This document shows, piece by piece, positions 9,114-21,468 of a DNA stretch of 64,000 nt. The stretch comes from Bifidobacterium breve (GTDB lineage Bacteria; Actinomycetota; Acidimicrobiia; Acidimicrobiales; Ilumatobacteraceae), in the NCBI GenBank assembly GCA_945901725.1, contig CAMDLK010000002.1, forward strand, positions 492 to 64,491, given 5' to 3'. The notes under the pieces are model-generated. The model saw only the letters and a program-made list of their open reading frames with translations. It made no database searches and was not told where the DNA came from. The position numbers were made by a program, and so were the translations under genes. Numbering within the stretch: position 1 is the stretch's first letter; each line of letters begins with the position of its first letter.

Positions 9114-9589
9114 ACGCGGTTCACCATCACGGTGATGGGCTTGTTGTGAATATGTGTTTCTCGCACGCGCTCCCACCCAAATGTTTCGTACCAATGCGCA
9201 ACATCTCGTGTGTACAAGTACACATCGGTATGCCCTAACTCACGTGCACGCCGAACCGCTTCAGTAACTAATTGTTTTCCCACTGACCTACCCCGGAATT
9301 CCGGATTCACAAAGACAGCTGCCACCCACGGGCCTGGTTCGATTGCGTCAGGCAATGCATCATCCAGAACCACGCATGCAACGCCAGCAAGTTGATCATT
9401 GCCGGCTGTGGCCGCGAGGCTTAGAGGCAGCGACGAAGGGTCTATCGCAGATTCTGAATAGACATTGAGATACCACTGAATGTCGTCGTTCGGATCAGTC
9501 TCTTTCCAATCATCAAAAGCCCACTGAGCACCTAGGTGTGCGAATTCTGAATTCGCAGGCATGTCAGAAATGACAATGTCAAATGTCAT
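9110..9589 (-). CDS. GNAT family N-acetyltransferase
   Basis: Acetyl-CoA binding motif 'FRGRSVGKQLV' and 159 aa. The start overlaps the ctaG stop (ATGA). Confidence 0.75.
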   Translation of the reverse strand: MTFDIVISDMPANSEFAHLGAQWAFDDWKETDPNDDIQWYLNVYSESAIDPSSLPLSLAATAGNDQLAGVACVVLDDALPDAIEPGPWVAAVFVNPEFRGRSVGKQLVTEAVRRARELGHTDVYLYTRDVAHWYETFGWERVRETHIHNKPITVMVNRV

Positions 9590-10437
9590 TGAGAGGAATC
9601 AGAAGTCTCTTTGGCGCTGTATGACTGCTCACCAAAGAAACCCTTCATAAATCGGGTGAAGAAAATGGTGATGATGAGCGCCCACAAGAAGACCGCTCCT
9701 CCGAGCTTCATAATTCCGCCAGCTAGTTGTTGATCACTCAGCACTGACATTCCCCACACTCGAACTGGAGTGTCATAGTGGTTGTACACAGAGCCTTCTG
9801 CGAATGTCAGCCAGCCTGCAGGAATTGAAGGCACCAGAGATGTGCAAAAGAGATAGACCATCATCGCCCCATAACTCATGCGCCATTCTTTTGCCGGGCC
9901 ACATATCGGTGTCCACAGCATTAAGGCGCTGAACACCAATAAAACGTGGAGGCTGTAGTGCAACGGGCCACCAGCGGCAGAGCGATTCACTAATGCAGGG
10001 ATATGAGTAATCAGTAGGACCGCGTTGTAGGTGACAGCAGCGATCACCGGGCGCGTGAGAAATCGAATCACTCGATACGTACGGCCGCGTCCCACCAATA
10101 GTCGAAACAGCCATTCCGGTGTTGCGAGTAGCGCAAGCGGCGGAATGATGTAGGTAAGAATTGTGTGCTGCAACATATGCATGGAATACAGGTATTCCTC
10201 AGCGATGTCATGTAGCGGCCAATCTGTTGAAATCAACAACATAAAGATCATCAGCGAAAAGATTCTGACCTGTTTGCGAGAAATCACTTCCCCACTGGGA
10301 ACAACTTTGGGGCCGAGCACTCGAATCGCGTACACGAACGCGACTATAAGACCAATGATCAACACCCAAATTTCTAGGTGCTGCTGATACCTCCAGGGAT
10401 CAGTATTCAGAGTTGGTTCGATGCTTGCGATCAGCAT
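9586..10437 (-). CDS. ctaG: Cytochrome c oxidase assembly factor CtaG (Caa3_CtaG family membrane protein)
   Basis: Polytopic membrane protein with 'HMLQHTILTYI', located at the 3' end of the cta operon. Confidence 0.75.
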   Translation of the reverse strand: MLIASIEPTLNTDPWRYQQHLEIWVLIIGLIVAFVYAIRVLGPKVVPSGEVISRKQVRIFSLMIFMLLISTDWPLHDIAEEYLYSMHMLQHTILTYIIPPLALLATPEWLFRLLVGRGRTYRVIRFLTRPVIAAVTYNAVLLITHIPALVNRSAAGGPLHYSLHVLLVFSALMLWTPICGPAKEWRMSYGAMMVYLFCTSLVPSIPAGWLTFAEGSVYNHYDTPVRVWGMSVLSDQQLAGGIMKLGGAVFLWALIITIFFTRFMKGFFGEQSYSAKETSDSSQ

Positions 10438-10456: not shown

Positions 10457-10768
10457 CTACGCGATGAAGAACTTGAAGGTGGCGAGAGCCGCGAAGTACA
10501 CGAATAACGCAAGCCCAAGACCGGTATAGAAAAGGAAGCTAAAAATCTTGCTATCAAACTTCAGATGCATGAAGTACGAAACGACCATTACAAACTTGAC
10601 CACCATCATGATGAGCAATGAAGGCATGAACAACGGGCCGAAATCTACGTAGTAGGTAGAAACCTCAAGCGCTGTGATGAGCGCCAAGATAATTGCAATC
10701 TTTATATAGCCGGCATCGGACATTCCGTGCTCTTGTGCGTCTTCGTGTGTTTCAGTAACTGTTGTCAT
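10457..10768 (-). CDS. Cytochrome c oxidase subunit IV (prokaryotic COX4 family)
   Basis: 103 aa, 3 TM, 'KFVMVVSYFMHLKFD' typical of bacterial caa3/qox subunit IV. Sits after ctaE. Confidence 0.75.
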   Translation of the reverse strand: MTTVTETHEDAQEHGMSDAGYIKIAIILALITALEVSTYYVDFGPLFMPSLLIMMVVKFVMVVSYFMHLKFDSKIFSFLFYTGLGLALFVYFAALATFKFFIA

Positions 10769-10781
10769 GATGCGCTCTCAA

Positions 10782-11396
10782 TCAGGATGGGATTAGGTAA
10801 ACCAGGGTGAAGATAACGATCCACACAACGTCAACAAAGTGCCAGTACAGACCAATGAGTTCTACAACTTCAGCCTTATCGCCAGTGATCTTGTTCTTTT
10901 TGATGATGCCCATTAAGGACAGCAACATAATGACTCCGATGGAAACGTGAACACCGTGGAAGCCGGTCAGAGAATAAAAGCTTGAACCGAAAAGACTTGT
11001 GGTGAAGCCGAGGCCTTCGCGATAGAAGGTTGTGAACTCATACACCTGGCCACCAACGAAGGTTGCGCCTAAGAGTGCTGTAATTGTCAGCCAAAGATTT
11101 GTCTTGCTGTCGTCCTTGCGATGTGCAGATGACACTGCGAGCACCATGGTGAGCGACGACATCAACAGAACGAAGCTGCTCACTGATGTGAAAGGGATGT
11201 CGTAAATCTGTGCTGGATGCGGCCCGTTTTGAACGCGTCCGCGATACAGCATGTACGTCGAGATGAGACCACCAAAGAGCAGGCATTCTGATCCGAGGAA
11301 CAACCACATTGCCAGCTTGTTGTTTGACAAGCCAGTTGATGAATGATGCCCGTGATCAGTTGCGTGATCGGTGTCGTGTGTTGCGATATCAGCCAA
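10782..11396 (-). CDS. ctaE: Cytochrome c oxidase subunit III
   Basis: 'FYSLTGFHGVHVSIG', 'LYWHFVDVVW'; 204 aa. Confidence 0.9.
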   Translation of the reverse strand: MADIATHDTDHATDHGHHSSTGLSNNKLAMWLFLGSECLLFGGLISTYMLYRGRVQNGPHPAQIYDIPFTSVSSFVLLMSSLTMVLAVSSAHRKDDSKTNLWLTITALLGATFVGGQVYEFTTFYREGLGFTTSLFGSSFYSLTGFHGVHVSIGVIMLLSLMGIIKKNKITGDKAEVVELIGLYWHFVDVVWIVIFTLVYLIPS

Positions 11397-13395
11397 GGGG
11401 AGCTATCTCCTTCGTGTGACCGTCGGTCGACGGTGTATCAAAATCGATTGCGTCAGGCACGGAAGGCTCAAGAACCCATCCGTACGAGGAGAAGAGAACA
11501 ATAAGTCCTCCGACAACCATGATTGGAGTTCCATAGATGACTCCCATACCAAGTACACCCATGCCGATAGAGAGAAGCAACGGCCAGTACGAAGGTCCTG
11601 GCATGTGAATGTCAGCATCAGCAGCTGCTTCTTCGGCGCGAACAAGCTCTTCACCGGTAGCTACTTGCTTCATTGTGTGAGTGACTTCGTCTTCTACATA
11701 TTTACGGTGGAAGAACTCATCGAGGTGATGTACGACTGGGATGCGATCAAAGTTGTGGACCTTAGGCGGGCTGGTTGTAATCCATTCCAAGGTACGAGCA
11801 TCCCATGGGTCAAGCGGAGCGCGTTCTGGGTTACGAGTGGTCTTGATCACGTTGATGATGAAGAAGAGAACACCGACGGCCAACACAAAGGAGCCGATAG
11901 ATGACACCATGTTCCAAAACCCGAAGTTGAAGAGACCTTCACCGCCACGAGCTTCGGTCCATACATACATACGGCGAGGCTGGCCTTGAAGACCAAGGAT
12001 ATGCATTGGTCCAAACGTGAGGTTCATACCAATAACCATGAACCAGAAGTTCCAGCTACCCAATTTTTCGTTGAGCATCTTTCCGAAAACTTTTGGCCAC
12101 CAGTAATAGAAGCCAGAGAACAGACCGAAGACCATTCCACCAAACAAGACGTAATGGAAGTGAGCAACGATGTAGTACGTGTCGGTCTGTTGGGTGTCAG
12201 AAGGTGCAACTGCGTGAGTAACGCCTGACAAACCACCGATGGTGAAGAGAATTACGAGGCCAATGGCGAACTTCATTGCCGCCGAGTACCAAATTTTGCC
12301 ACCCCACATGGTGAGAATCCAGTTGAAGATTTTCACACCAGTTGGAATTGCAATTGCCATTGTTGCCATCGAGAACACAGCAACAGAAACTGGGCCGAGA
12401 CCAGACGCGAACATATGGTGAGCCCACACGCCGAAGCCGACGAGTCCGATTGAAGCACCAGAGAACACCACGAACGGATAACCGAAAAGTGGTTTACGTG
12501 AGAACGTAGGAAGTACTTCAGAGATGATGCCGAACGCCGGCAGAATCAAGACGTACACCTCCGGATGACCAAAGATCCAGAACAAGTGTTGCCAGAGAAG
12601 TGGGTCTGCACCTTGCGACACATCGAAGAAGGTGGCTCCGTAGGAACGCTGGAACATCAGCAATACCAAAGCCACGGTGATGACGGGCAATGAGAACACC
12701 AAGAGGAACTGCACCACGAGAATCATCCACGTAAACACGGGCATCTTCATAAGGGTCATTCCGGGTGCTCGCATGTTGAGCACAGTGACAATCAGGTTGA
12801 TAGAGCCGATAAGCGAAGCGATACCCGCAATCTGCAACCCGAGAATCCAGAAGTCGACACCGTTACTTGGTGAGAACACTGGACCAGAGTTTGGTGCGTA
12901 CATAAACCAACCACCGTCAGCAGCGCCACCAAGGAACCATGATGCATTAAGAATCAGACCACCGGTTAGGAACAACCAGAACGACAATGCGTTGAGACGT
13001 GGGAAGGCAACATCTCGAGCACCAATTTGAAGAGGCAAGAAATAGTTTGCAAATGCTGCAGCCATGGGCATGGCGAACAAGAAGATCATCGTGGTCGCGT
13101 GCATGGTGAACATTTGGTTGTACTTGTCAGCACTAAGGATGCGGCCGTCAGGGAGTGCTAGCTGCAAGCGAATAAACAACGCTTCGACACCGCCGATAAT
13201 GAAGAACACAAAAGCAACAGTGCCGTACATGATTCCAAGTTTTTTGTGGTCAACAGTAAAGAGCCATTCGCGCCAGCCTGTTGTGTTGACTGGACGACGT
13301 ACAGCGCCAAGTGACTGAGTTGGTGCAACTACTAATTTGCCCTTCGCCACGTCAAGTGCGTTACCTGGTGTAAGAGTTAGTTCATTGGTGGACAT
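11389..13395 (-). CDS. ctaD: Cytochrome c oxidase subunit I, with a ~100-aa C-terminal extension carrying 2 extra TM helices
   Basis: All canonical ligand motifs are present: 'MFTMHATTMIF', 'WIFGHPEVY', 'WAHHMF', 'AHFHYVLFGG'. The C-terminal 'GPSYWPLLLSIGMGVLGMG...' resembles actinobacterial subunit IV (CtaF). Confidence 0.95.
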   Translation of the reverse strand: MSTNELTLTPGNALDVAKGKLVVAPTQSLGAVRRPVNTTGWREWLFTVDHKKLGIMYGTVAFVFFIIGGVEALFIRLQLALPDGRILSADKYNQMFTMHATTMIFLFAMPMAAAFANYFLPLQIGARDVAFPRLNALSFWLFLTGGLILNASWFLGGAADGGWFMYAPNSGPVFSPSNGVDFWILGLQIAGIASLIGSINLIVTVLNMRAPGMTLMKMPVFTWMILVVQFLLVFSLPVITVALVLLMFQRSYGATFFDVSQGADPLLWQHLFWIFGHPEVYVLILPAFGIISEVLPTFSRKPLFGYPFVVFSGASIGLVGFGVWAHHMFASGLGPVSVAVFSMATMAIAIPTGVKIFNWILTMWGGKIWYSAAMKFAIGLVILFTIGGLSGVTHAVAPSDTQQTDTYYIVAHFHYVLFGGMVFGLFSGFYYWWPKVFGKMLNEKLGSWNFWFMVIGMNLTFGPMHILGLQGQPRRMYVWTEARGGEGLFNFGFWNMVSSIGSFVLAVGVLFFIINVIKTTRNPERAPLDPWDARTLEWITTSPPKVHNFDRIPVVHHLDEFFHRKYVEDEVTHTMKQVATGEELVRAEEAAADADIHMPGPSYWPLLLSIGMGVLGMGVIYGTPIMVVGGLIVLFSSYGWVLEPSVPDAIDFDTPSTDGHTKEIAPLG

Positions 13396-13407: not shown

Positions 13408-14664
13408 TTACTTCAGTGTCAATAGGTAAGCGACGAGTTTGTCGATGTCTGTTTCAGTAAGACCAAGATTTGGCATACCGCGATATTTTCCACCTGATTT
13501 CACCAACTTGGTTGGGTCGGCGTACATCGGCTTCATTGCTGGTGCATTGCGCAACCACCCGCGAAGATCATTTGCATTCAAACAAGACTCTGAAACACCA
13601 GCTAGGTACTTCTCGCCAATGGTCTCGGAACTTGCATTCCAGACATCGCTTCGACACTTCTTGTTCAACAAGTCGAAAATCGCACCAGCAAAAGTGTTGC
13701 GCGACATGAGATGTGAGAGGTTCGGGGCGGCACCGGAATAGACGTTTTCGTCTGGTGCTGCGATGGCAGGTGTGCCATCAGCCTTCTTCAGGCCGTTGAC
13801 CTGGTGACAACGAATGCACTGATTCAAGAAGACTCCTTCGCCTTCTTTAGCCAAAGTTCCATCTGCAGGCGGCGTGTACGCCTTCTGCTGATTAGCTACC
13901 CACTTTGCAAAATCTTCCTTAGAAAGCGCTACCGCTTCCATACGCATGTTGGCATGAGAAAGACCGCAGAATTCGGTGCACTGACCAGCGAAAATTCCGG
14001 GTTTGTCTGCCTGAAGACGCAACAAGTTGATTCGGCCAGGAACGGCATCTTTCTTGCCATTCAATGCCGGGATCCAATACGAGTGAATAACGTCGCGGCT
14101 TGTTTCGCGCAACAAGATTTTTGTACCGACTGGGATAACCAATTGGCCTGAAGAAATAATCGGCTGAGTGATGCCTTGATCCTCTTGTGCTGGATAGTCA
14201 TATTCCCACCACCACTGCTGACCAGTGACGTTGATAATCATTTCGGTGTCTTTGGTCTCGGCAAGTTCGAAAATTCCGCGGAAAGTAAAGACGCCAACAA
14301 CAGTAAGGATGAGCGCAGGGATGATTGTGAGAATGATTTCAACAATTGGCTTGCCATGACTCTGCGACGGAATCGGTTGTCCGCGATCAGTGAACTTCCA
14401 AAACGTGTAGGCAGCGAGAGCAAAAACGAGAACTCCAACAACACCGGCCATAGGGAAAACAATCCACTGAAGGTTGTTAATAATCTGGGCGTTATCGCCT
14501 TTCGGCTGCCACGTATCTTGAGGCGCATTGGTGGCGCAACCAGCTAAAGCAACAACACCGAAGATCGTTGCAATTGAGTTACGAATGCGGTGACTTGAAG
14601 CCTTCACGTTGTTCACGATATCCATAGCCTTTTCTGATGTGTGAGGGGAGACTGAGTGACTCAC
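13408..14664 (-). CDS. ctaC: Cytochrome c oxidase subunit II fused to a cytochrome c domain (caa3-type)
   Basis: CuA motif 'HSYWIP...CTEFCGLSHANM' and heme c motif 'CIRCHQ'. Lipobox-like 'LAGC'. The GTG start overlaps the upstream gene's stop (GTGA). Confidence 0.9.
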   Translation of the reverse strand: MSHSVSPHTSEKAMDIVNNVKASSHRIRNSIATIFGVVALAGCATNAPQDTWQPKGDNAQIINNLQWIVFPMAGVVGVLVFALAAYTFWKFTDRGQPIPSQSHGKPIVEIILTIIPALILTVVGVFTFRGIFELAETKDTEMIINVTGQQWWWEYDYPAQEDQGITQPIISSGQLVIPVGTKILLRETSRDVIHSYWIPALNGKKDAVPGRINLLRLQADKPGIFAGQCTEFCGLSHANMRMEAVALSKEDFAKWVANQQKAYTPPADGTLAKEGEGVFLNQCIRCHQVNGLKKADGTPAIAAPDENVYSGAAPNLSHLMSRNTFAGAIFDLLNKKCRSDVWNASSETIGEKYLAGVSESCLNANDLRGWLRNAPAMKPMYADPTKLVKSGGKYRGMPNLGLTETDIDKLVAYLLTLK

Positions 14665-15785
14665 GGCACGACCAACTTGATTTCTCCGGTGGCACCAGGA
14701 ACTGTAAATGAGTACGGCTCGGCTTCTGTTGCTGGCTTAGGAATTGTGAGGGTCATTACTTGTTCTTGGTTCTTGCCGGTGAGTTGTGTGCATGTACCAA
14801 CTTTTTCAACGACTCCAGTTTCGGCAACTTTGGCTGAGCCCAAATTGACGACCAGTCGGTGATCCTCTTCATCAAGGTTGCGGAACATAACAGACGTTGC
14901 ATTCGAGCGAGGAATAGTGATTGTGTCGACTTTTTTGGTCATACCAATTGCTTCTGCATACACCTTTCCATCTTTTACAAAGATGGTGGCTGTCACAGCA
15001 GAACGCAATGAGACTGTGTTGTTTGCATGGTGGTCGTAATGCTCAGATTCTTCTTCTCCACATTCACGATGTGATGCGTCGAAATGATCTTCTTCTGCAG
15101 CGACAGCAAGTTCATGACGTTCGCCTGACAGTGCTGCAAACGTTCCGACGCCAATAAGAGCCACGGCTGCAAGGACAGCTACAACAACTGTGACAGCGCC
15201 TTTCATGAATCCCTTAGAAGCAATGAGGATGCCGACTACAAAAATTGCACCGGCCGCCGCAATAAAAAAGATTGTTCCAGATTCTTTTGATAGAGCAAGG
15301 AACACTCGAGAAAACAAGAAAGCAATGATGCCAAGACCAACCGCAGCAAGTCCCGGGTATTCAATTGCGCTAATCGCACGCTCGCGAGCAAACGTATTGA
15401 ATTCGCGATCCGACGATGCACCATCTGCCCAGTTGTGAATTGCCCATTCAACGCCGCCGCCAATGAGGACTGCAACGCCGAGGATGAATACGACAGACAC
15501 AGTCACAAGACCAGTGAGAACAATGGCTGCTCCGAGTGCGAACACAATTGGCCAGAAGGATGGTGGACCAGCAACGGCGTTAGCTGCAACTGCTTCTTCA
15601 TCTGTGTAGACGTCACCATCACGGGTGAACAATGCCATTGCACCGATAAGTGCGCCTGAGGCTGCAAGGCCGAACAGTGCAACTGCTCCGAGGTCTGATG
15701 GGTTCACCAACACCATGTACAAGATTGCGGAAATCAGCGACAAGCCTGTGAGGCCGAAGAAATATTTTGAGCCGGGGGTAATCAT
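14661..15785 (-). CDS. Membrane protein: subunit IV(CtaF)-like N-terminal TM bundle, extra TMs, and a C-terminal degenerate CuA/cupredoxin-like domain
   Basis: 'PPSFWPIVFALGAAIVLTG' parallels the CtaD tail 'GPSYWPLLLSIGMGVLGMG'. C-terminal 'EEDHRLVV...GTCTQLTGKNQEQVM' lines up with CtaC 'RDVIHSYWIP...GQCTEFCGLSHANM', but the second Cys and the second His are replaced. Confidence 0.6.
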   Translation of the reverse strand: MITPGSKYFFGLTGLSLISAILYMVLVNPSDLGAVALFGLAASGALIGAMALFTRDGDVYTDEEAVAANAVAGPPSFWPIVFALGAAIVLTGLVTVSVVFILGVAVLIGGGVEWAIHNWADGASSDREFNTFARERAISAIEYPGLAAVGLGIIAFLFSRVFLALSKESGTIFFIAAAGAIFVVGILIASKGFMKGAVTVVVAVLAAVALIGVGTFAALSGERHELAVAAEEDHFDASHRECGEEESEHYDHHANNTVSLRSAVTATIFVKDGKVYAEAIGMTKKVDTITIPRSNATSVMFRNLDEEDHRLVVNLGSAKVAETGVVEKVGTCTQLTGKNQEQVMTLTIPKPATEAEPYSFTVPGATGEIKLVVP

Positions 15786-15791
15786 CTTGAC

Positions 15792-16397
15792 CTACTTTTG
15801 TACGTACACCACGAACCACACAACAGCAAAGGCTGTAGTGAGGAAGTACCAATAGAGCGCGTGGGCATTAACAACATCTACGTCGTTGTCACGACCACCA
15901 ACAGATCGAAAGAAAGCCACGAGGCTAAATGCCATACCGCCAACAACTAACAACAACATCGTTCCGGTAATTGCATAGAACATTGTTTGAAACTGTCCGT
16001 CAGCGAGCCCGATGTCCATCTGGCTATAAACCGCAATTTGTGCATTCACAACAGCGAGCCCAATGAGGAAACTGATAGCAAGTGCAAGTGAACGGTGAGG
16101 CGCATCATTGCGTTTTGCTGAATATGAAGCCCACTGTGCCATCAATGCACCGACTGGGAAAGTAATGAGCATGACGTTGGCTGCAACTTCAGGAATTTTC
16201 ACTCCGGCCGGCATCCAGTCCTTGATGATTTTCAAACCATCAGATGAGTCACGCGTTGGCGCGCCGGCACGGAACTTCAACCACATTGCAATCATGCCGA
16301 TGATGAGCATGAATGCAGATGCGCAAGCTATTGCCGTTGCAACAAGAATTTGACGGCGTGGCGCCGGAGCTGGTGCTGCTGGTAATGCAATGGTCAT
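15792..16397 (-). CDS. Divergent cytochrome oxidase subunit III-like membrane protein
   Basis: 'FYAITGTMLLLVVGG' vs CtaE 'FYSLTGFHGVHVSIG', and 'ALYWYFLTTAFAVVWFVVY' vs 'GLYWHFVDVVWIVIFTLVY'. The start overlaps the upstream stop (ATGA). Confidence 0.7.
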   Translation of the reverse strand: MTIALPAAPAPAPRRQILVATAIACASAFMLIIGMIAMWLKFRAGAPTRDSSDGLKIIKDWMPAGVKIPEVAANVMLITFPVGALMAQWASYSAKRNDAPHRSLALAISFLIGLAVVNAQIAVYSQMDIGLADGQFQTMFYAITGTMLLLVVGGMAFSLVAFFRSVGGRDNDVDVVNAHALYWYFLTTAFAVVWFVVYVQK

Positions 16398-17914
16398 GCC
16401 GATGCCTCCTGTGAAACTGATGCGCCATTTCGCACTGCATCAATGAGCAGTGCGACGAAGCCCACAACCGTGAGAACAATGAGTGCGTGGCCAAGGCCAG
16501 CAAGAACATTCCAAAGAGCTACAGGTCCGTCGTAATCAAAACCCATAACGGTGTTGGCTGGCTGATCTGCAAACCCAGCGATATAGAGCGGGAAGCTAGC
16601 CAAGATTGTTCCTAGTAAACCGATTAGTGCAAGTCCGAGAAGTTTTGTGTTGTCAATGGCGCGTCCCCACAAGAGAGGAGCCCAATGACTCAGTGCGCCT
16701 AAGGCACTCAACAGGCCGCCGTACACAAGGTACAAAACAACTCCTTCAGAGAACACAGTGCCATCAAGTGAAGCTGCCTTCAAGTTGTATAAGCCGTTTC
16801 CAAGCACACCAACAATGATCATGAGTGCGCCAAGTAGTGACAAAGCAAATGGTGCAGTTACTCGAGGAGTTCCTACCTTCAGACACAAGAGTGAAACAAG
16901 AACAACAATCAGCATCCCGAGCAATGGCAAACCATTGAACAACGAATGCAACAAAGTGCTCTTCACTTTGTCTGAGTTTGTTCCGGCCCAATCAAGAATG
17001 TGCGCGCTTTGTGTCGCGGCACCAAGTACTGCTGTGGAAATGATTCCAATACCTGCGAGAACTACTGGACGAAGTGGTTGTTCTGTGCGGGCCGTTACTG
17101 GCGCAACTTCTGCAAGAACTCCGAGAGCCATGATTACAAACACAAAAGTCATTGGCTGAGATAAAGACCAACCCAAGAAGGAATTGATTCCCTTGTTGCC
17201 ACCGAAAACTAATTGCGCATGGGTGTGATCAACGTAGAGATAAATGATTGTGCCAATCATGACTGGCAAGCTCAGCAACGTAGCAATCGATCCGATTAAT
17301 GCTGACCATGAAAAAGCCGGAATCCGATCAAGTGTCATTCCCGGTGCACGAGCAGTAAGAACTGACGTTGCAATGGAAAGGCTTCCGGCCAAAAGACCAA
17401 CTGCTGCAAGCGCAACACCTAACAAGTACAAATCAACAAGATCAGTTGCTCCGCCACCAGGGCCGCCGTTGCCAATGATTGAAACATCAACCATCAATGC
17501 ACCAAAGAGCCATGCCCAGAAACCAAATTGCGCAAGTCGTGGAAACGCAATAGCGCGTGCGCCAAGTTGTGTCGGAACAACAGCAATTGCTATTCCTACG
17601 AAAAGTGGTGCAAGAACTCCAAAGACAAGGGCGAATTGATACAACGCAAACATTTGCGGAGTTGCATCACCGTGAAAGATTTCCATGTGAGCTGGGCTGA
17701 TGCGCTCGAGACCAAAGAGCAAGCCGAGCACTGCTGCAAGAACGGCGCTCAGCAATGAGGTCCCGACGAATAGACGTCCAATTTTTTTATGATCACTGCT
17801 GGTGATCCATTGGCCGATGGAAACGACAAAAGCAGAGCCTGCGCCCTGTGCATGCGTCGTTGCGCCCACGTGAGTGTCGATATTGGTCATTTTCGGATGA
17901 TCTCCCAGATACAC
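16394..17914 (-). CDS. Heme-copper oxidase subunit I-like protein lacking the canonical heme/CuB histidine ligands
   Basis: Shares 'SSDHKKIGRLF', 'QLGARAIAFPRLAQFGFW' and 'ARAPGMTLDRIPAFSW' with CtaD. Ligand positions read 'MFALYQFALVF' (His->Tyr), 'WSLSQPMTF' (His->Gln, Tyr->Phe) and 'VVLYLVYGG' (both His lost). Alternative start is the ATG at 17890. Confidence 0.75.
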   Translation of the reverse strand: MYLGDHPKMTNIDTHVGATTHAQGAGSAFVVSIGQWITSSDHKKIGRLFVGTSLLSAVLAAVLGLLFGLERISPAHMEIFHGDATPQMFALYQFALVFGVLAPLFVGIAIAVVPTQLGARAIAFPRLAQFGFWAWLFGALMVDVSIIGNGGPGGGATDLVDLYLLGVALAAVGLLAGSLSIATSVLTARAPGMTLDRIPAFSWSALIGSIATLLSLPVMIGTIIYLYVDHTHAQLVFGGNKGINSFLGWSLSQPMTFVFVIMALGVLAEVAPVTARTEQPLRPVVLAGIGIISTAVLGAATQSAHILDWAGTNSDKVKSTLLHSLFNGLPLLGMLIVVLVSLLCLKVGTPRVTAPFALSLLGALMIIVGVLGNGLYNLKAASLDGTVFSEGVVLYLVYGGLLSALGALSHWAPLLWGRAIDNTKLLGLALIGLLGTILASFPLYIAGFADQPANTVMGFDYDGPVALWNVLAGLGHALIVLTVVGFVALLIDAVRNGASVSQEASA

Positions 17915-18036: not shown

Positions 18037-18972
18037 TTAGCGGACGAAGACGTCGACGGTCAACGCAATGAACAGAAGCGAGATATACGAGATCGAAAAG
18101 GAGAAAAGACGCATCGAAGCGCTTGGACTGTCTGATTTTCCAAGTGCAATTGTGCCCCATAGGAAAGCCACGCCTAACACCAGCGCCGAGATTCCGTAGA
18201 CCCAGCCCATATCACTGACTGGGACCAGAAGTAGCGAGCTCAGAAGCAGGGCGATCGTGTATCGGACCATCGAGGCAATGACCTTTTCGTGGGACACCAC
18301 GGACGGCAACATCGGTACGCCGGCGGCTGTGTAATCGTCATTGTGCTTGATTGCCAGAGCCCAAAAATGAGGTGGGGTCCACAAGAAAATGACCAAGAAA
18401 AGCAACCATGGGGTCCAACTGAGCGAATTAGTGACCGCTGCCCAGCCCACAAGCACAGGAACAGCGCCTGCAGCCCCACCAATCACGATGTTCTGCTTGC
18501 TGGTGCGCTTCAGCCAGAGGGAATAGATGAAGACATAAAAAAGGGTGGCTGAGAGGGCCAAAATGCCTGAAAGTAGGTTAGTTCCGGCCCAAAGGACTAA
18601 AAATGCGACGATTTCGAGTGAAATAGCGAAGATAAGTCCGTTGCGTGGTGAAATTAAGCCAGTAACCAAGGGGCGATTCTTGGTGCGCTCCATCAGGGCG
18701 TCAATATCGCGATCGATGTACATGTTGATGGCGTTTGCGCCGCCGGCAGCAAGGGTGCCGCCCACCATCGTGACCACCATCAGCCAGAGGCTTGGCCAGC
18801 CGTTATTGGCTACGACCATGGTGGGGATCGTTGTGATCAGAAGCAATTCAATAATGCGCGGCTTTGTGAGAGCGATATAGCCCGCAACAACAGTCGTGGG
18901 GATACGCCCAGACTCATGGCCAGGTCGGCGCGTCAGGCGTGACGGGACAAAAGGGCGAACGTTGATAGGCAC
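18037..18972 (-). CDS. ctaB: Protoheme IX farnesyltransferase (heme O synthase)
   Basis: UbiA-family motifs 'NMYIDRDIDALMERTKNRPL' and 'WTPPHFWALA'. Confidence 0.9.
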   Translation of the reverse strand: MPINVRPFVPSRLTRRPGHESGRIPTTVVAGYIALTKPRIIELLLITTIPTMVVANNGWPSLWLMVVTMVGGTLAAGGANAINMYIDRDIDALMERTKNRPLVTGLISPRNGLIFAISLEIVAFLVLWAGTNLLSGILALSATLFYVFIYSLWLKRTSKQNIVIGGAAGAVPVLVGWAAVTNSLSWTPWLLFLVIFLWTPPHFWALAIKHNDDYTAAGVPMLPSVVSHEKVIASMVRYTIALLLSSLLLVPVSDMGWVYGISALVLGVAFLWGTIALGKSDSPSASMRLFSFSISYISLLFIALTVDVFVR

Positions 18973-19030
18973 AGCCCTCCATCGTATTGGTGGGTAGGCA
19001 ACATCGCCTATTCACCAGCAGAATGAATAT

Positions 19031-19351
19031 GTGATTTTCATCGCTCCGTCTGGAAGCCAACAAACTGAAGTGGCAGAGCCCTCCGTTGATATCGCCACGG
19101 ATGAAGTCGTTGACCTCCAGGTCCCCTGGGTGGTCATTGTGTGGAATGACCCCATCAATCTGATGTCGTATGTGTCATTCGTATTGCAGAAACTTTTTGG
19201 ATACTCCAAAGCAAAAGCAGACATTCTGATGATGGATGTTCATGAAAAGGGTCGCGCTGTTGTTTCAAACGGCCCCCGCGAAAAAGCAGAGATCGATGTT
19301 TTTCGACTCCACGAACATGGTTTGTGGGCAACGATGCAGCAAGACACATGA
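19031..19351 (+). CDS. clpS: ATP-dependent Clp protease adaptor ClpS
   Basis: '[44 protein letters not shown]'. Confidence 0.9.
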
Positions 19352-19904: not shown

Positions 19905-19977
19905 GCCCCCATCGTCTAGCGGCCTAGGACACCACCCTTTCAAGGTGGCGGCACGGGTTCGAATCCCGTTGGGGGTG
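19905..19977 (+). tRNA. tRNA-Glu (anticodon TTC)
   Basis: Manual cloverleaf: acceptor GCCCCCA/TGGGGGT (G1-U72), anticodon loop CTTTCAA, T-arm ACGGG-TTCGAAT-CCCGT. No encoded CCA. Confidence 0.9.
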
Positions 19978-20002
19978 CAATATAGACCTGTGGTTTCCAC
20001 AA

Positions 20003-20079
20003 GGTCCCGTGGTGAAGCTGGAGTTCACGCCGGCCTGTCAAGCCGGAGGTCGCGGGTTCGAGTCCCGTCGGGACCGCCA
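20003..20079 (+). tRNA. tRNA-Asp (anticodon GTC)
   Basis: Acceptor GGTCCCG/CGGGACC, anticodon stem CCGGC/GCCGG with loop CTGTCAA, T-loop TTCGAGT. CCA is encoded. Confidence 0.9.
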
Positions 20080-20154
20080 TTATTGGCGGTATTTTCCGTC
20101 AATAAGACGGTGGTGAAAGCCACCGTCTGGTTCGGCAATAGCCGGACCGCCAAT

Positions 20155-20230
20155 GGTCGAGTAGCTCAGTTGGCAGAGCACACGCCTGAAAAGCGTGGGG
20201 TCACCGGATCGACGCCGGTCTCGACCACCA
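20155..20230 (+). tRNA. tRNA-Phe (anticodon GAA)
   Basis: Acceptor GGTCGAG/CTCGACC, D-arm GCTC-AGTTGGCA-GAGC, anticodon loop CTGAAAA. CCA is encoded. The T-loop reads ATCGACG (A at position 54). Confidence 0.9.
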
Positions 20231-20248: not shown

Positions 20249-21067
20249 TTACAAATCGTTTCGCAAACGCACCAATGCTTCTTGGGCAACTGTTGCCACA
20301 TGTGTTCCGTCTTCGGCAAACACATACCCAAAACTGACACCTCTGTTAGAGGTGTACGAGTGGCAGTTCATTTCGAACAAATGCCATTGGCTGGCATCCA
20401 CATCACGGTGAAACCAAATGGTGTGGTCAAGGCTGGCTGAAAAGAAAGCATCGAATCCGTTGAAGTGCTTTGCAAGTTCCGGAACAGCAAGAACCACAGA
20501 TGCCGTTGGCAAGTCATCTGACAAATAGGCAAGCGCACAGCGATTCAACAATTGATTACCGCCGAAATTTTCCAGCGTTCGGTACCAGGTCATAATGCGG
20601 CCAGCACCATCACGATGATCCGTGAACTTTGTATCGCGTGGCACTGGGCGCTCTTCTACATATTCTGAAAAGGCTTGCGAATACGGAATATCGTCTGGCT
20701 TTGGAATATCCATTGGCATCTTCACTGTCGTGATAGCCGGCGAAATCTCTGGCTTTTGAAAACTTGCTTCAAGATTCAAAATTGCGCCAACAGATTGACG
20801 TGCAACAACACGTCGTGTCACAAAGCTCCTGCCATCGCGAATGCGATCCACTTCATAACGCACCGTTGCAGCATTGTCACCTCGACGAATGAAATAGGCG
20901 CGCAATGAATGCGGAAGGTATTCCGGGTCGACTGTGTGAGCAGCAGCGTTCAGCGCCTGCGTGACAATGTGGCCTCCATATAAACCACCCCACGGATACG
21001 GGTGACCTTCACCCACCAGCACGTCATTTCCGTGCGGTTCTAATTCAAAAAGTTTTGCGAGCGTCAC
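20249..21067 (-). CDS. tesB: Acyl-CoA thioesterase II (TesB family)
   Basis: Double hotdog architecture; 'HSLRAYFIRRGD..VRYEVDRIRDGRSFVTRRV', 272 aa. Confidence 0.85.
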   Translation of the reverse strand: MTLAKLFELEPHGNDVLVGEGHPYPWGGLYGGHIVTQALNAAAHTVDPEYLPHSLRAYFIRRGDNAATVRYEVDRIRDGRSFVTRRVVARQSVGAILNLEASFQKPEISPAITTVKMPMDIPKPDDIPYSQAFSEYVEERPVPRDTKFTDHRDGAGRIMTWYRTLENFGGNQLLNRCALAYLSDDLPTASVVLAVPELAKHFNGFDAFFSASLDHTIWFHRDVDASQWHLFEMNCHSYTSNRGVSFGYVFAEDGTHVATVAQEALVRLRNDL

Positions 21068-21468
21068 TTGATTGAAATGATCACTAGGACTTCATCGGTG
21101 ACATGGCTCTCGAGATCAAAAAGCCCTGCTTTGTCTGCAGTAAACGAGATAACTGCAGATTCACCCTTGGGGGTATCTCCGGTCGATAGATCGTATTCAT
21201 GAAGATGAAATTCATCATCAGCATTCGGATTTGTCAGAGTGATATTCACTTGAGAACCAAGTGCAACTTCTTCAATACGATCGGCGGCAGAGTCAGTTCC
21301 GACAGTGACACTGATTTCGGTTGGACCCGCAACTTTTGCAGAAGGGTCAGCTGCAACAACGGTTGTGTCGGCAGAAAGATTGGCCCCTTCGTCTGCATCA
21401 GTGTCTGAACATGATGCAAGTGATGCCATCAAAAGGAGTGGGGTGACCGCTGCGAAAAGTTTTCTCAT
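21064..21468 (-). CDS. Small lipoprotein, beta-rich with a His motif (function unknown)
   Basis: Signal peptide plus lipobox 'LLMASLASC', and 'DDEFHLHEYD...ESH'. The stop overlaps the tesB GTG start (GTGA). Confidence 0.6.
   Translation of the reverse strand: MRKLFAAVTPLLLMASLASCSDTDADEGANLSADTTVVAADPSAKVAGPTEISVTVGTDSAADRIEEVALGSQVNITLTNPNADDEFHLHEYDLSTGDTPKGESAVISFTADKAGLFDLESHVTDEVLVIISIK

Follow-up and report, generated by a model that had tools for sequence, protein, structure and literature searches.

The window, a stretch of DNA of 64,000 nucleotides, carries on its minus strand an operon with the gene order ctaB, I', III', X3, ctaC, ctaD, ctaE, ctaF, and ctaG. The first gene, ctaB (18037..18972; heme O synthase, NCBIfam heme o synthase 407 bits, Pfam UbiA), is located ~120-145 nt upstream of I' and is found directly upstream of it in all loci that reach that far. 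The stop codon of I' (16394..17890) and the start codon of III' (15792..16397) share an ATGA overlap at 16394-16397, a 6-nt gap separates the end of III' at 15792 from the start of X3 at 15785 (ORF 14661-15785), and a GTGA overlap at 14661-14664 combines the stop codon of X3 with the GTG start codon of ctaC. The three intact reading frames, their junctions, and their coupling to a canonical caa3 operon are present as described in the initial annotation, and no promoter or terminator signals above chance were found within the operon.

CtaC (13408..14664) matches Pfam COX2, COX2_TM, and Cytochrom_C, as well as NCBIfam CoxB (192.7 bits, above the cut-off), and represents a canonical subunit II in which the CuA motif is intact and to which a cytochrome c is fused; CTEFCGLSHANM and CIRCH are visible in its translation. 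CtaD (11389..13395) is a canonical subunit I (Pfam COX1, 526 bits; NCBIfam CtaD_CoxA, 702.9 bits, above the cut-off) in which all six His and the Tyr are present, and to which a C-terminal subunit-IV-like hairpin (PF12270, residues 589-643) is fused. They are followed on the same strand by ctaE (10782-11396; Pfam COX3, 76.7 bits), ctaF (10457-10768; Pfam COX4_pro, 40 bits), and ctaG (9586-10437; Pfam Caa3_CtaG, 129.8 bits). The source organism is a freshwater actinobacterium.

I' is a diverged paralog of subunit I of A-type oxidases. It matches Pfam COX1 with full-length coverage (132 bits, E 2.9e-38, residues 44-475) and is 25% identical to CtaD of the window across its full length. Its AF2 model (pLDDT 84.5) has a Foldseek TM of 0.80 to a solved A-type subunit I, and the closest solved sequence is that of B. 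subtilis QoxB (6koc), a menaquinol oxidase. Translation almost certainly begins at the ATG at 17890, since the homologs all begin with MT[TN]ID, the Met is 92% conserved, and GGAGA lies upstream. The predicted protein thus comprises 498 aa, rather than the 506 aa previously counted from the GTG at 17914, the start of the longest ORF.

The motif pairs of I' and CtaD quoted in the initial annotation are all found in the translations, and the loss of redox ligands in I' and III' extends across the family. In I', MFTMH of CtaD is changed to MFALY, FGHPEVY to LSQPMTF, AHFHYV to VVLYLV, and GARDVAFPRLN to GARAIAFPRLA, and no more than one of the six His ligands may be left. The WAHHMF region had been considered unrecognizable; H305, 90% conserved in the Ilumatobacteraceae clade, is located there, and the equivalence of H305 to a CuB His varies with the alignment used. 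In a survey of 117 close relatives and 115 representatives of 50%-identity clusters, the positions of the cross-linked Tyr, the D-channel, the K-channel, and the heme-propionate Arg are substituted throughout. The equivalents of D132, N121, N139, E286, K362, and T359 are apolar or small residues, with Ala, Ile, Leu, Val, or similar residues replacing those of the D- and K-channels. At the TM2 His position the window clade has Tyr or Phe, and at that of TM10 it has Leu or Val. Both low-spin heme His are retained in 14 of the 115 clusters, the a3 His in nine, and the full set in none. Residues that are at least 85% conserved family-wide are nearly all Gly, Pro, Trp, and Arg also found in CtaD, and no family-specific polar cluster that would suggest a new active or transport site is present among them; a few polar residues (E70, R71, H305, and E390) are conserved in the Ilumatobacteraceae clade. 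Most relatives of I' retain the CtaD-type C-terminal motif DPWD..TLEW..SPP..NF, and the C terminus is truncated in the window clade.

III' is, in turn, a diverged paralog of subunit III of A-type oxidases, with matches to Pfam COX3 (34.9 bits, E 1.9e-8) and NCBIfam aa3_CtaE_Actin, and with an hhalign probability of 100% (E 2e-46) to CtaE; the paralogy suggested earlier for both proteins is therefore genuine. The BLASTP alignment agrees with the reported loss of the conserved His residues, with TGFHGVHV changed to TGTMLLLV and YWHFVD to YWYFLT. In one locus (L075), I' and III' form a single in-frame ORF.

X3 starts with four TM helices predicted in the AF2 model (residues 1-125, 15411..15785), of which TM3-TM4 form a Cyt_c_ox_IV-like hairpin. 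Residues 72-117 align by hhalign with the C-terminal hairpin fused to CtaD (96.4% probability, E 1e-9), which itself matches PF12270, and a precomputed PF12270 match exists for the X3 ortholog P0407. The similarity to CtaF or subunit IV proposed for this protein thus finds support in one hairpin. Three further helices, TM5-7 (residues 143-220, 15126..15359; AF2 secondary structure), are kept in an alignment of all X3 forms (258-374 aa); no homolog of them was detected, and hhalign comparisons with the N terminus of CtaC, with CtaF, and with the C terminus of CtaD were not significant. Residues 221-262 (15000..15125) include, according to the alignments, a juxtamembrane GER..E..H motif and a His/Asp/Glu-rich linker with the invariant Cys242, in a region of low pLDDT. 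The outward-facing motif and the His/Asp/Glu-rich tail are common to all X3 forms, and similar acidic, His-rich tails are found also in forms without a cupredoxin domain.

Residues 263-374 (14664..14999, followed by the stop codon at 14661-14663) form a copper-less cupredoxin-fold domain (pLDDT 70-84) that is predicted to face outward. Each of the best 50 Foldseek matches in the PDB is a cupredoxin, among them auracyanin (6kol, E 6.6e-4), Cupredoxin_1 (4hcf), and amicyanin. The X3 orthologs P0404, P0406, P0407, and P0408, as well as the protein of locus L081, combine a TM anchor with H...C-x2-H-x2-M type-1 sites, and hhalign gives no profile similarity between the C-terminal domain of X3 and the CuA cupredoxin of CtaC (0.2% probability). 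To judge from these comparisons, the domain derives from a type-1 blue-copper domain and not from CuA, so that the cupredoxin fold assigned in the initial annotation stands and the CuA origin does not. The ligand loop C-D-F-H-P-T-M of the Cu-intact orthologs is deleted in X3 of the window clade, the invariant Cys332 falls in a clade-specific insertion, and H309 and M344 are not conserved. The label II' and the retention of the first His, one Cys, and the Met had therefore to be abandoned. X3 of the window has two invariant Cys residues and one near-invariant His, and across lineages its cupredoxin is intact, degenerate, or absent.

About 90 loci were compared, and gene order is identical in all of those whose sequence extends far enough. 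The order ctaB-I'-III'-X3-ctaC-D-E-F-G was found in 80 of 80 genome loci and in all distant contexts examined, as far as the 150th-ranked representative, and is kept down to ~27% identity for I' and 26-33% for X3 relative to the proteins of the window. There are 482 homolog clusters at 50% identity with E<=1e-30. All named sources of the loci are Acidimicrobiia, the module is present in every Acidimicrobiia locus examined, and wherever a locus reaches into the genes downstream, the trio is accompanied by a caa3 operon. Upstream of the trio ctaA is found along with ctaB; in L081, X3 and ctaC are separated by an inserted gene for a TlpA-like thiol-disulfide oxidoreductase, and a TlpA-like gene adjoins a related anchored cupredoxin in L091. 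The dN/dS values are 0.075 for I', 0.085 for III', and 0.096 for X3, compared with 0.052 for ctaD and 0.117 for ctaF, and no frameshifts or stops occur in the trio in about 87 loci; I', III', and X3 are thus not pseudogenes, a possibility that the initial annotation had left to be checked. Relative to its catalytic counterparts, the trio evolves 2.4-3 times faster, with Kimura distances of 0.62-0.85, compared with 0.57 for CtaG and 0.25-0.40 for the core subunits. These data confirm a module of three intact, strongly conserved genes upstream of the caa3 operon. It has no described function, and a literature search found no description of an I'-III'-X3 system, in agreement with the earlier statement.

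I', III', and X3 are diverged paralogs of the A-type subunits I, III, and, in part, IV, and would have originated by duplication of caa3 genes. As judged from the residues at the relevant positions, the proteins of the window lineage bind neither heme nor copper through canonical sites and have neither a D nor a K proton channel; the module is therefore not an oxidase, an NO reductase, or a proton pump. The cofactor sites are dispensable across the I' clusters and X3 lineages, which indicates that a selected function survived complete cofactor loss. Some distant relatives still have the pair of low-spin heme His or a blue-copper site that is intact, which suggests that this loss was progressive. 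A redox-active duplicate with a low-spin heme and a blue-copper domain was probably the origin of the module, its cofactors then being lost stepwise while a structural role was kept.

Our tentative preference, held at somewhat less than even confidence, is that the module is a pseudo-oxidase without catalytic activity that assembles with caa3 as a scaffold. I', III', and X3 would form a membrane sub-complex mimicking the I-III-IV core of the oxidase, with the subunit-IV-like hairpin provided in trans by X3 and in cis on CtaD, and X3 would place its copper-less cupredoxin domain and His/acid-rich linker at the outer membrane face. Made together with CtaC-D-E-F, this pseudo-oxidase would accompany the active caa3 in a structural, non-catalytic capacity, and may be a pseudo-protomer or a supercomplex scaffold that stabilizes or organizes the real oxidase. 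Such a role is favored by the preserved fold and lost chemistry of I' and III' along their full length, by conserved residues that are only of scaffold type, with no new polar cluster, by purifying selection and fixed linkage to caa3, and by an evolutionary rate of the trio that fits a non-catalytic subunit. Physical association is indicated by the I'-III' fusion in L075 and by the homology of the X3 hairpin to that fused to CtaD; co-assembly with caa3 is deduced from the gene order, the coupling, this one fusion, and sequence homology. On the other hand, no such subunits are found in the solved actinobacterial supercomplexes, although none of these is from Acidimicrobiia. The rate of the trio is nearer to that of the assembly factor CtaG than to those of the core subunits, which fits an assembly role equally, as does its position among the biogenesis genes ctaA, ctaB, ctaG, and the TlpA-like gene of L081. 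Scaffold and assembly roles are both possible.

An assembly platform based on molecular mimicry, on balance unlikely, is the strongest of the alternatives. The I'-III'-X3 complex would stay outside the mature enzyme and dock newly made subunits, for example by holding apo-CtaC as CtaD would, or else the heme a enzymes CtaA and CtaB. Heme a and copper, the latter via the His/acid-rich outer region of X3, would be inserted before the subunits are passed to the real CtaD. The flanking biogenesis genes (ctaA and ctaB upstream, ctaG downstream), the TlpA-like genes of L081 and L091, the overlap of the X3 stop codon with the ctaC start, the GER..E..H motif and outer tail shared by all X3 forms, and the CtaG-like rate are consistent with this scheme, for which the ligand-less COX1-like gene described beside ctaB in Acetobacter (PMC10715153) would be a precedent. 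However, the trio is not homologous to any of the known assembly factors, with no match to Surf1, Sco, PCuAC, or Cox11 in Pfam and NCBIfam, and the intact H-C-H-M sites of X3 orthologs are of the electron-transfer type rather than those of a labile chaperone. Three large membrane proteins (~1,070 aa in total) translationally coupled to structural subunits would be unusual for a chaperone, and I' of the window type, having no heme ligands, could not hold heme a in the usual way.

We consider it improbable that the 12-helix scaffold of I', together with III' and X3, has taken on an independent membrane function (for example, passive conduction of ions, protons, or gas, transport, or sensing) and is merely co-transcribed with caa3. 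Strong purifying selection without a recognizable cofactor site, the fully retained fold of I', and the clade-conserved E70, R71, H305, and E390 could be explained in this way, but the family-conserved residues are nearly all shared with CtaD and form no new polar cluster, and the trio was not found apart from the caa3 operon wherever downstream genes are visible. The replacement of all D- and K-channel residues also disfavors the ion- or proton-conducting module re-using oxidase channels that was suggested initially. Still less probable is a residual redox module in which electrons, for example those of quinol or of a donor in the periplasm, would reach the CtaC cytochrome c domain with the help of non-canonical ligands for a heme or a metal site made from Cys242, Cys332, and His239 of X3. 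The bis-His pair in 14 of 115 clusters, the intact type-1 Cu sites of some X3 orthologs, the two invariant Cys and near-invariant His of X3 in the window, and the proximity of I' to QoxB point in that direction, and such activity may hold for some relatives. It is unlikely for the module of the window, where the TM2 and TM10 His positions are replaced, neither the heme-propionate arginines nor the Cu ligand loop is retained, and a disulfide is the simpler explanation for the two outer-face Cys. Finally, that these genes are decaying remnants of a duplicated oxidase operon nearing loss, as the missing catalytic residues, faster evolution, and truncated I' C terminus might imply, is effectively refuted by their low dN/dS, undisrupted reading frames, 482 clusters, and gene order held over very deep divergence.

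Comparison of the proposed pseudo-oxidase with A-type caa3 enzymes (that of the window, Thermus caa3 (2YEV), Bacillus caa3, and actinobacterial aa3 (6ADQ)) shows that I' and III' are homologs of subunits I and III in both sequence and fold. X3 contains the subunit-IV-like hairpin, relatives of I' mostly keep the CtaD-type C-terminal motif, and the I+III fusion of Thermus caa3 is paralleled in L075. Unlike these enzymes, the module has no ligands of heme a, heme a3, and CuB, save possibly one His, and no cross-linked Tyr, D/K channel, heme-propionate Arg, or CuA subunit; judging by its residues, it can neither reduce O2 nor pump protons. A "deranged COX1-like protein" of Acetobacter (Matsutani et al. 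2014) is described in PMC10715153 as having no metal-ligand residues and adjoining ctaB, with a proposed structural role in stabilizing CtaB, and as a cytochrome c oxidase leftover after the switch of that lineage to ubiquinol oxidase. I' resembles it as a COX1 homolog without metal ligands near ctaB, with a structural role suggested, whereas the set described here comprises three genes, occurs alongside an intact caa3 to which it is coupled, and is both under purifying selection and conserved in all Acidimicrobiia loci examined.

E. coli bo3 CyoA and the second subunit of gNOR (PMC11214002) resemble X3 in presenting a cupredoxin fold without copper ligands on a complex of the heme-copper oxidase type. 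In those enzymes, however, subunit I is fully active, and the X3 domain differs from their subunits in having no profile similarity to subunit II and in having orthologs of the type-1 single-Cys, rather than CuA, type. Respiratory-chain blue copper proteins with a membrane anchor (auracyanin, amicyanin) share that anchor and the type-1 sites with the X3 orthologs, which we presume to be comparable to sulfocyanin SoxE of the Sulfolobus SoxM supercomplex; in contrast, the ligand loop of X3 in the window is deleted, and its anchor consists of seven helices that include the subunit-IV-like hairpin. We know of no such non-catalytic scaffold paralog in the heme-copper oxidase superfamily. Elsewhere, non-catalytic paralogs serve as scaffolds or structural subunits, as in NifEN compared with NifDK, F1 alpha with F1 beta, and the bc1 core proteins with MPP, with NifEN and F1 alpha still binding ligands. 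The resemblance to these systems is one of analogy and not of homology, with duplicated subunits kept for a structural purpose after their catalysis was lost.

The three minus-strand reading frames located between ctaB and ctaC, denoted I' (subunit-I-like), III' (subunit-III-like), and X3, are genuine genes under selection. Their products are paralogues of oxidase subunits that lack the cofactors, and at all loci examined the trio is coupled to an active caa3 operon. Roles as an oxidase, as an NO reductase, or as a proton pump working through channels are excluded. The observation made in the initial annotation is confirmed, apart from the start of I' and the account of the third protein, both of which need correction, and its interpretation is supported in part.

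The gene row, all on the minus strand, begins with ctaB (heme O synthase, 18037–18972) and continues with I' (16394–17914 as the longest reading frame), III' (15792–16397), X3 (14661–15785), ctaC (CuA and a fused cytochrome c, 13408–14664), ctaD (11389–13395), ctaE (10782–11396), ctaF (COX4_pro, 10457–10768), and ctaG (Caa3_CtaG, 9586–10437). The junctions are as originally described, with I' and III' overlapping in ATGA, a gap of 6 nt between III' and X3, and X3 and ctaC overlapping in GTGA. The reading frame of I' was also recognized correctly, although its start was not: since all homologues open with MT[TN]ID, the Met is 92% conserved, and GGAGA is located upstream, translation very probably starts from the ATG codon at position 17890 rather than from the GTG at 17914, giving a protein of 498 residues. 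No promoter-like or terminator-like signals above the shuffled expectation were found inside the gene row. The genes of the canonical caa3 oxidase are intact; against Pfam COX1, CtaD reaches 526 bits, it exceeds the CtaD_CoxA cut-off, and the translation of CtaC includes CTEFCGLSHANM and CIRCH.

The C-terminal ~100 residues of CtaD (11389–11700) form a fused two-helix extension that matches Cyt_c_ox_IV (PF12270) at residues 589–643, and a fusion of this type is also annotated in distant relatives (loci L083, L084, and L085). As ctaF encodes a separate COX4_pro protein, the active oxidase appears to contain two different kinds of subunit IV elements. The distant relatives that were examined have ctaA (COX15) immediately upstream of ctaB, in divergent orientation. 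The window has ClpS directly after ctaB (18973–19351), with no ctaA at that place, so that ctaA is either relocated or positioned beyond the stretch. A plus-strand tRNA cluster (Glu-TTC, Asp-GTC, and Phe-GAA, 19905–20230) follows closely on the genes for ClpS and DUF2017. The minus strand also encodes, at 21064–21468 and some 2 kb away from the cta operon, a predicted lipoprotein of 134 residues, with a signal ending in LASC, an HLHEY motif, and no Pfam family; its neighbors are an acyl-CoA thioesterase gene and a reading frame of 197 residues with no Pfam match.

I' retains the subunit I fold over its whole length. It matches Pfam COX1 (PF00115) with 132.3 bits (cut-off 34.8) and E 2.9e-38 over profile positions 1–433 of 436, and aligns end to end with the CtaD of the window at 25% identity. 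The AlphaFold2 model of I', built from 26 relatives, has a pLDDT of 84.5 and a pTM of 0.87, and its Foldseek TM score against subunit I of the bovine, mycobacterial, and E. coli A-type enzymes is ~0.80; both the twelve-helix fold and the sequence homology are thus preserved. Six His residues are invariant in subunit I, two binding the low-spin heme, one the high-spin heme, and three CuB. In I' and 117 of its relatives, the six columns read Y, Q, (A/S/Q), (H?), V, and L. In I' itself, the heme a ligand in TM2 is replaced by Tyr, the CuB ligand in GHPEVY by Gln, the cross-linked Tyr by Phe, the heme a3 ligand by Val, and the heme a ligand in TM10 by Leu. The channels fare no better: D132, N121, and N139 of the D channel (R. 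sphaeroides numbering) correspond to A, I, and A, and E286 at its end to Met (M or Q across the family), K362 and T359 of the K channel to V and M (T359 being M or V across the family), and two Arg residues contacting the heme propionates to A and N. The same replacements are found in the 117 relatives, at 52–94% identity, and the active-site Tyr and a proton channel (D and/or K) are absent family-wide.

The claim that the ligands had been lost rather than displaced holds for five of the six positions, with no His at shifted positions in BLASTP, three MAFFT alignments, or the full-length Pfam match. The sole exception is the WAHHMF region, previously considered unrecognizable, where H305 is 90% conserved in the window clade (the freshwater Ilumatobacteraceae-type sequences close to the window) and is ambiguous, its equivalence to a CuB ligand varying with the alignment used. 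In a comparison covering cNOR, qNOR, eNOR, sNOR, gNOR, and others, I' lacks the heme ligands and the three His, with or without Glu/Asp, of NO reductases, the ligand columns being non-His, and its best NCBIfam matches are to A-type CtaD, with 155.8 bits against a cut-off of 670.75. Of the residues with at least 85% conservation in the I' family, nearly all are also present in CtaD (structural Gly, Pro, Trp, and Arg), with no family-specific polar cluster among them. At the C terminus (16394–16420), the window clade, with 498 residues, has lost the DPWD..TLEW..SPP..NF motif common to canonical CtaD and to ~90% of the I' family (536–545 residues); this loss reads as a further reduction step, specific to the window clade.

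III' is similarly preserved in its helix bundle and devoid of the characteristic His residues. It scores 34.9 bits against Pfam COX3 (PF00510, cut-off 23.8) and aligns with CtaE in hhalign with a probability of 100% and E 2e-46 over 173 columns, which establishes its homology to the COX3 bundle, with TGFHGVHV changed to TGTMLLLV and YWHFVD to YWYFLT. Homology places I' and III' in the Pfam families COX1 and COX3, and they have none of the functional features of heme–copper oxidases or NO reductases.

The third protein differs most from its original description, which combined a subunit-IV-like bundle with a CuA domain. No Pfam family and no sequence relative in the PDB could be found for the window X3 even at E ≤ 1, and all of its homologues are annotated as hypothetical. 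The AlphaFold2 secondary structure consists of seven TM helices followed by a β domain; as the model of the whole protein is poor (mean pLDDT 57.5), the analysis draws on its C-terminal domain alone. The subunit IV assignment is supported for one hairpin only: in hhalign comparisons, which were run on thinned alignments, residues 72–117 (TM3–TM4) match the PF12270-positive C-terminal hairpin of CtaD with a probability of 96.4% and E 1e-9 over 46 columns, and one orthologue (P0407) has a precomputed PF12270 match. TM5–7 show no significant hhalign similarity to the N-terminal helices of CtaC, to CtaF (COX4_pro), or to the C terminus of CtaD. A weak NCBIfam match of X3 to the "SCO2097 family" (22 bits, where the cut-off is 110) was set aside as probable helix-composition noise. 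A GER..E..H juxtamembrane motif is present in nearly all forms of X3. In these forms, a motif of the type GER(E/D)F(E/H)(E/H)H directly follows the last TM helix and leads to a stretch rich in His, Asp, and Glu (residues 221–262, window 15000–15125), with equivalent tails in L083–L087 and in the relative proteins P0406, P0408, and P0409; this stretch may serve to bind metal or to dock cytochrome c.

The subunit II assignment has to be abandoned. X3 has no COX2 (PF00116) match in Pfam or NCBIfam, its BLASTP comparison with CtaC is not significant, hhalign of its C terminus with the cupredoxin of CtaC gives a probability of 0.2% with no profile similarity, and the CuA motif H...CxExCGxxHxxM is absent. 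Residues 263–374 are nevertheless modeled with a pLDDT of 70–84, and all of the top 50 Foldseek matches of the domain in the PDB are cupredoxins, including auracyanin, Cupredoxin_1, amicyanin, and the CuA domain of N2O reductase; the β-sandwich fold is thus recognizable, with marginal E-values (best 6.6e-4) and in a whole-protein model of poor quality. Orthologues match the type-1 cupredoxin families PF13473 and PF00127, and distant ones carry the classical type-1 motif HN(V/I)A...C-D-(F/V)-H-x-x-M, with the copper ligands intact in P0404, P0406, P0407, P0408, and the L081 protein. In the window clade, the ligand loop C-D-F-H-P-T-M of the orthologues is deleted (YSFTV---PG), H309 is variable (H/Y/F/R), M344 is likewise not conserved, and the invariant Cys332 is located in a clade-specific insertion, leaving X3 of the window without the His, Cys, His, and Met set of type-1 copper. 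Based on the cupredoxin matches, the lack of similarity to CtaC, the type-1 motifs of the orthologues, and the deleted loop, the C-terminal domain is to be regarded as descended from a blue-copper domain, with the copper lost, and not as a CuA domain. The two invariant residues Cys242 and Cys332 probably form a disulfide, and by the positive-inside rule the domain would face outward.

The seven-helix core of X3 is constant across lineages and its tail varies. The protein may have no cupredoxin and end with an acidic and His-rich tail (L083–L087, P0409), it may carry one intact type-1 domain (L081, L090, P0404, P0407, P0408), or the domain may be copper-less, as in the window clade. Two related anchored proteins (P0403 and P0405) comprise two or three tandem intact domains with no IV-like N-terminal part; P0405 is found in a different gene context, adjoining ctaG. 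I' varies as well, with the bis-His pair of the low-spin heme kept in L081, L085, L086, and L087, the a3 His also kept in L086 and L087, and the CuB ligands in none of these four. In one Ilumatobacteraceae MAG (L075:8001–10208), I' and III' form a single in-frame reading frame with no stop between them, resembling the fusions of subunits I and III that occur naturally in some genuine oxidases, although an assembly error is possible. TlpA/ResA-like genes occur within the cta clusters of certain Acidimicrobiia from soil: L081 has such a thioredoxin-fold gene (AhpC-TSA, Redoxin; 11338–11904) between X3 and ctaC, and in L091 (1583–2110) one is positioned beside a membrane-anchored tandem blue-copper protein, which itself follows a ctaG-like gene.

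The family of I' comprises at least 792 clusters at 90% identity, and a profile search of 1.84 billion representatives yielded 482 clusters at 50% identity (E ≤ 1e-30). Among 115 full-length top representatives, none has the complete ligand set; both low-spin heme His are kept in 14, the a3 His in nine, and the first CuB His in five. P0386, set aside from this count and the only full-ligand sequence in the top 150 representatives, was considered as an ancestral intermediate and rejected, its gene context being unrelated with no ctaB or caa3 nearby; it is probably a divergent true oxidase. Scanning one genome for each species gave relatives in 299 stretches, the best 80 of which are freshwater Ilumatobacteraceae or Acidimicrobiales MAGs, the closest (95% identity) being an Ilumatobacteraceae MAG from Lake Mendota. 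The order ctaB-I'-III'-X3-ctaC-D-E-F-G is preserved in all 80 as far as the contigs extend, and in the distant contexts examined, down to the 150th-ranked representative; the flanking ClpS, DUF2017, and purB of the window also recur in several distant contexts. Named sources all carry Acidimicrobiia, Acidimicrobiales, or a generic actinomycete label, and annotate I' as "heme/copper-type cytochrome/quinol oxidase subunit 1", "cbb3-type cytochrome c oxidase subunit I", or, once, "cytochrome o ubiquinol oxidase subunit 1". Several records (L002, L006, L018, L022, L030, L031, L080, and others) bear the title "Bifidobacterium breve" or "uncultured Bifidobacterium sp."; their I' proteins are 50–94% identical to that of the window, and as these MAGs carry the syntenic Acidimicrobiia operon, the labels look wrong.

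The dN/dS ratios, calculated against 12 close relatives, and the mean Kimura distances over 48 loci are 0.075 and 0.74 for I', 0.085 and 0.62 for III', and 0.096 and 0.85 for X3, compared to 0.061 and 0.40 for CtaC, 0.052 and 0.25 for CtaD, 0.050 and 0.26 for CtaE, 0.117 and 0.40 for CtaF, and 0.073 and 0.57 for CtaG. No reading frame of the trio is disrupted in ~87 loci; in six I' loci, an in-frame stop is located upstream of the true MT[TN]ID start and not internally. Pseudogenization, which had been raised as a caveat, is rejected by these intact frames and by the dN/dS values of 0.075–0.096. Residual rate correlations among the nine operon proteins are near zero or negative, by construction.

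The fusion in L075, the subunit-IV-like hairpin supplied in trans, and the translational coupling suggest that I', III', and X3 would form a sub-complex. Its selected function would be structural, since stepwise loss of the heme and copper sites was survived and only scaffold residues are conserved. We tentatively favor, at somewhat under an even chance, a non-catalytic partner or pseudo-protomer of caa3. A mimicry-based assembly platform is a possible, if rather unlikely, alternative, to which the biogenesis genes around the trio, the His/acid-rich outer region of X3, and the CtaG-like evolutionary rate would point; Pfam and NCBIfam scans detected no homology of I', III', or X3 to Surf1, Sco, PCuAC, Cox11, Caa3_CtaG, CtaA, or CtaB. 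A membrane function independent of the oxidase is improbable; at each of the Acidimicrobiia loci examined, the trio is tied to the operon of an active oxidase. A residual redox role is very improbable, with the heme ligands replaced and the copper loop deleted as described, and a decaying relic can practically be discounted for intact frames under selection. We can also speculate on a history that is possible, if somewhat unlikely, in which the trio never had, or no longer has, a binuclear center, is redox-active in some lineages, and persists as a dead and indispensable pseudo-enzyme protomer in freshwater Ilumatobacteraceae. In some lineages, the blue-copper domain of X3 may feed the bis-His low-spin heme of I', a step that would mirror the transfer from CuA to heme a and pass electrons into or around caa3. 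The trio of the window type would have lost every cofactor, yet been kept as an indispensable protomer of the oxidase complex.

Few membrane enzymes have been studied as much as the heme–copper oxidases, whose classification is based on the six invariant His ligands. It is surprising that the I/III/IV architecture was kept and the cofactors and channels discarded, with strong selection remaining. Acidimicrobiia include the abundant freshwater acIV lineage, and as I' genes are annotated as oxidase subunit I, terminal oxidases of Acidimicrobiia may be overcounted in metabolic reconstructions. Should the trio prove to be a structural protomer or an assembly scaffold, terminal oxidases would be able to recruit dead paralogues, like nitrogenase or ATP synthase, and a natural apo-subunit I would be available for studies of heme-free folding and assembly. 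The graded loss among relatives, with the low-spin His pair kept or lost and the blue-copper domain intact, degenerate, or absent, provides a series for the transition from a redox enzyme to a pseudo-enzyme.

We know of no earlier complete sub-complex of dead paralogues in a terminal oxidase. No description of the trio was found in the full-text literature, where coverage of journals is partial and prior mention is possible; the only related item is a COX1-like relic in Acetobacter. In the account of it given in PMC10715153 (citing Matsutani et al. 2014), this ligand-less gene beside ctaB is a leftover of a lost oxidase, and its product was proposed to stabilize CtaB. The likeness to the window lies in a ligand-less I' and its adjacency to ctaB. 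The window has a three-gene set instead of a lone COX1-like gene, and the trio coexists with an active enzyme and is conserved over very diverse Acidimicrobiia; since every sufficiently long locus has an intact caa3 operon directly after the trio, a relic of the Acetobacter type is rejected. Cupredoxin subunits with no CuA are present in bo3 and gNOR (PMC11214002). These subunits, however, partner an active subunit I, whereas the I' that accompanies X3 is inactive.
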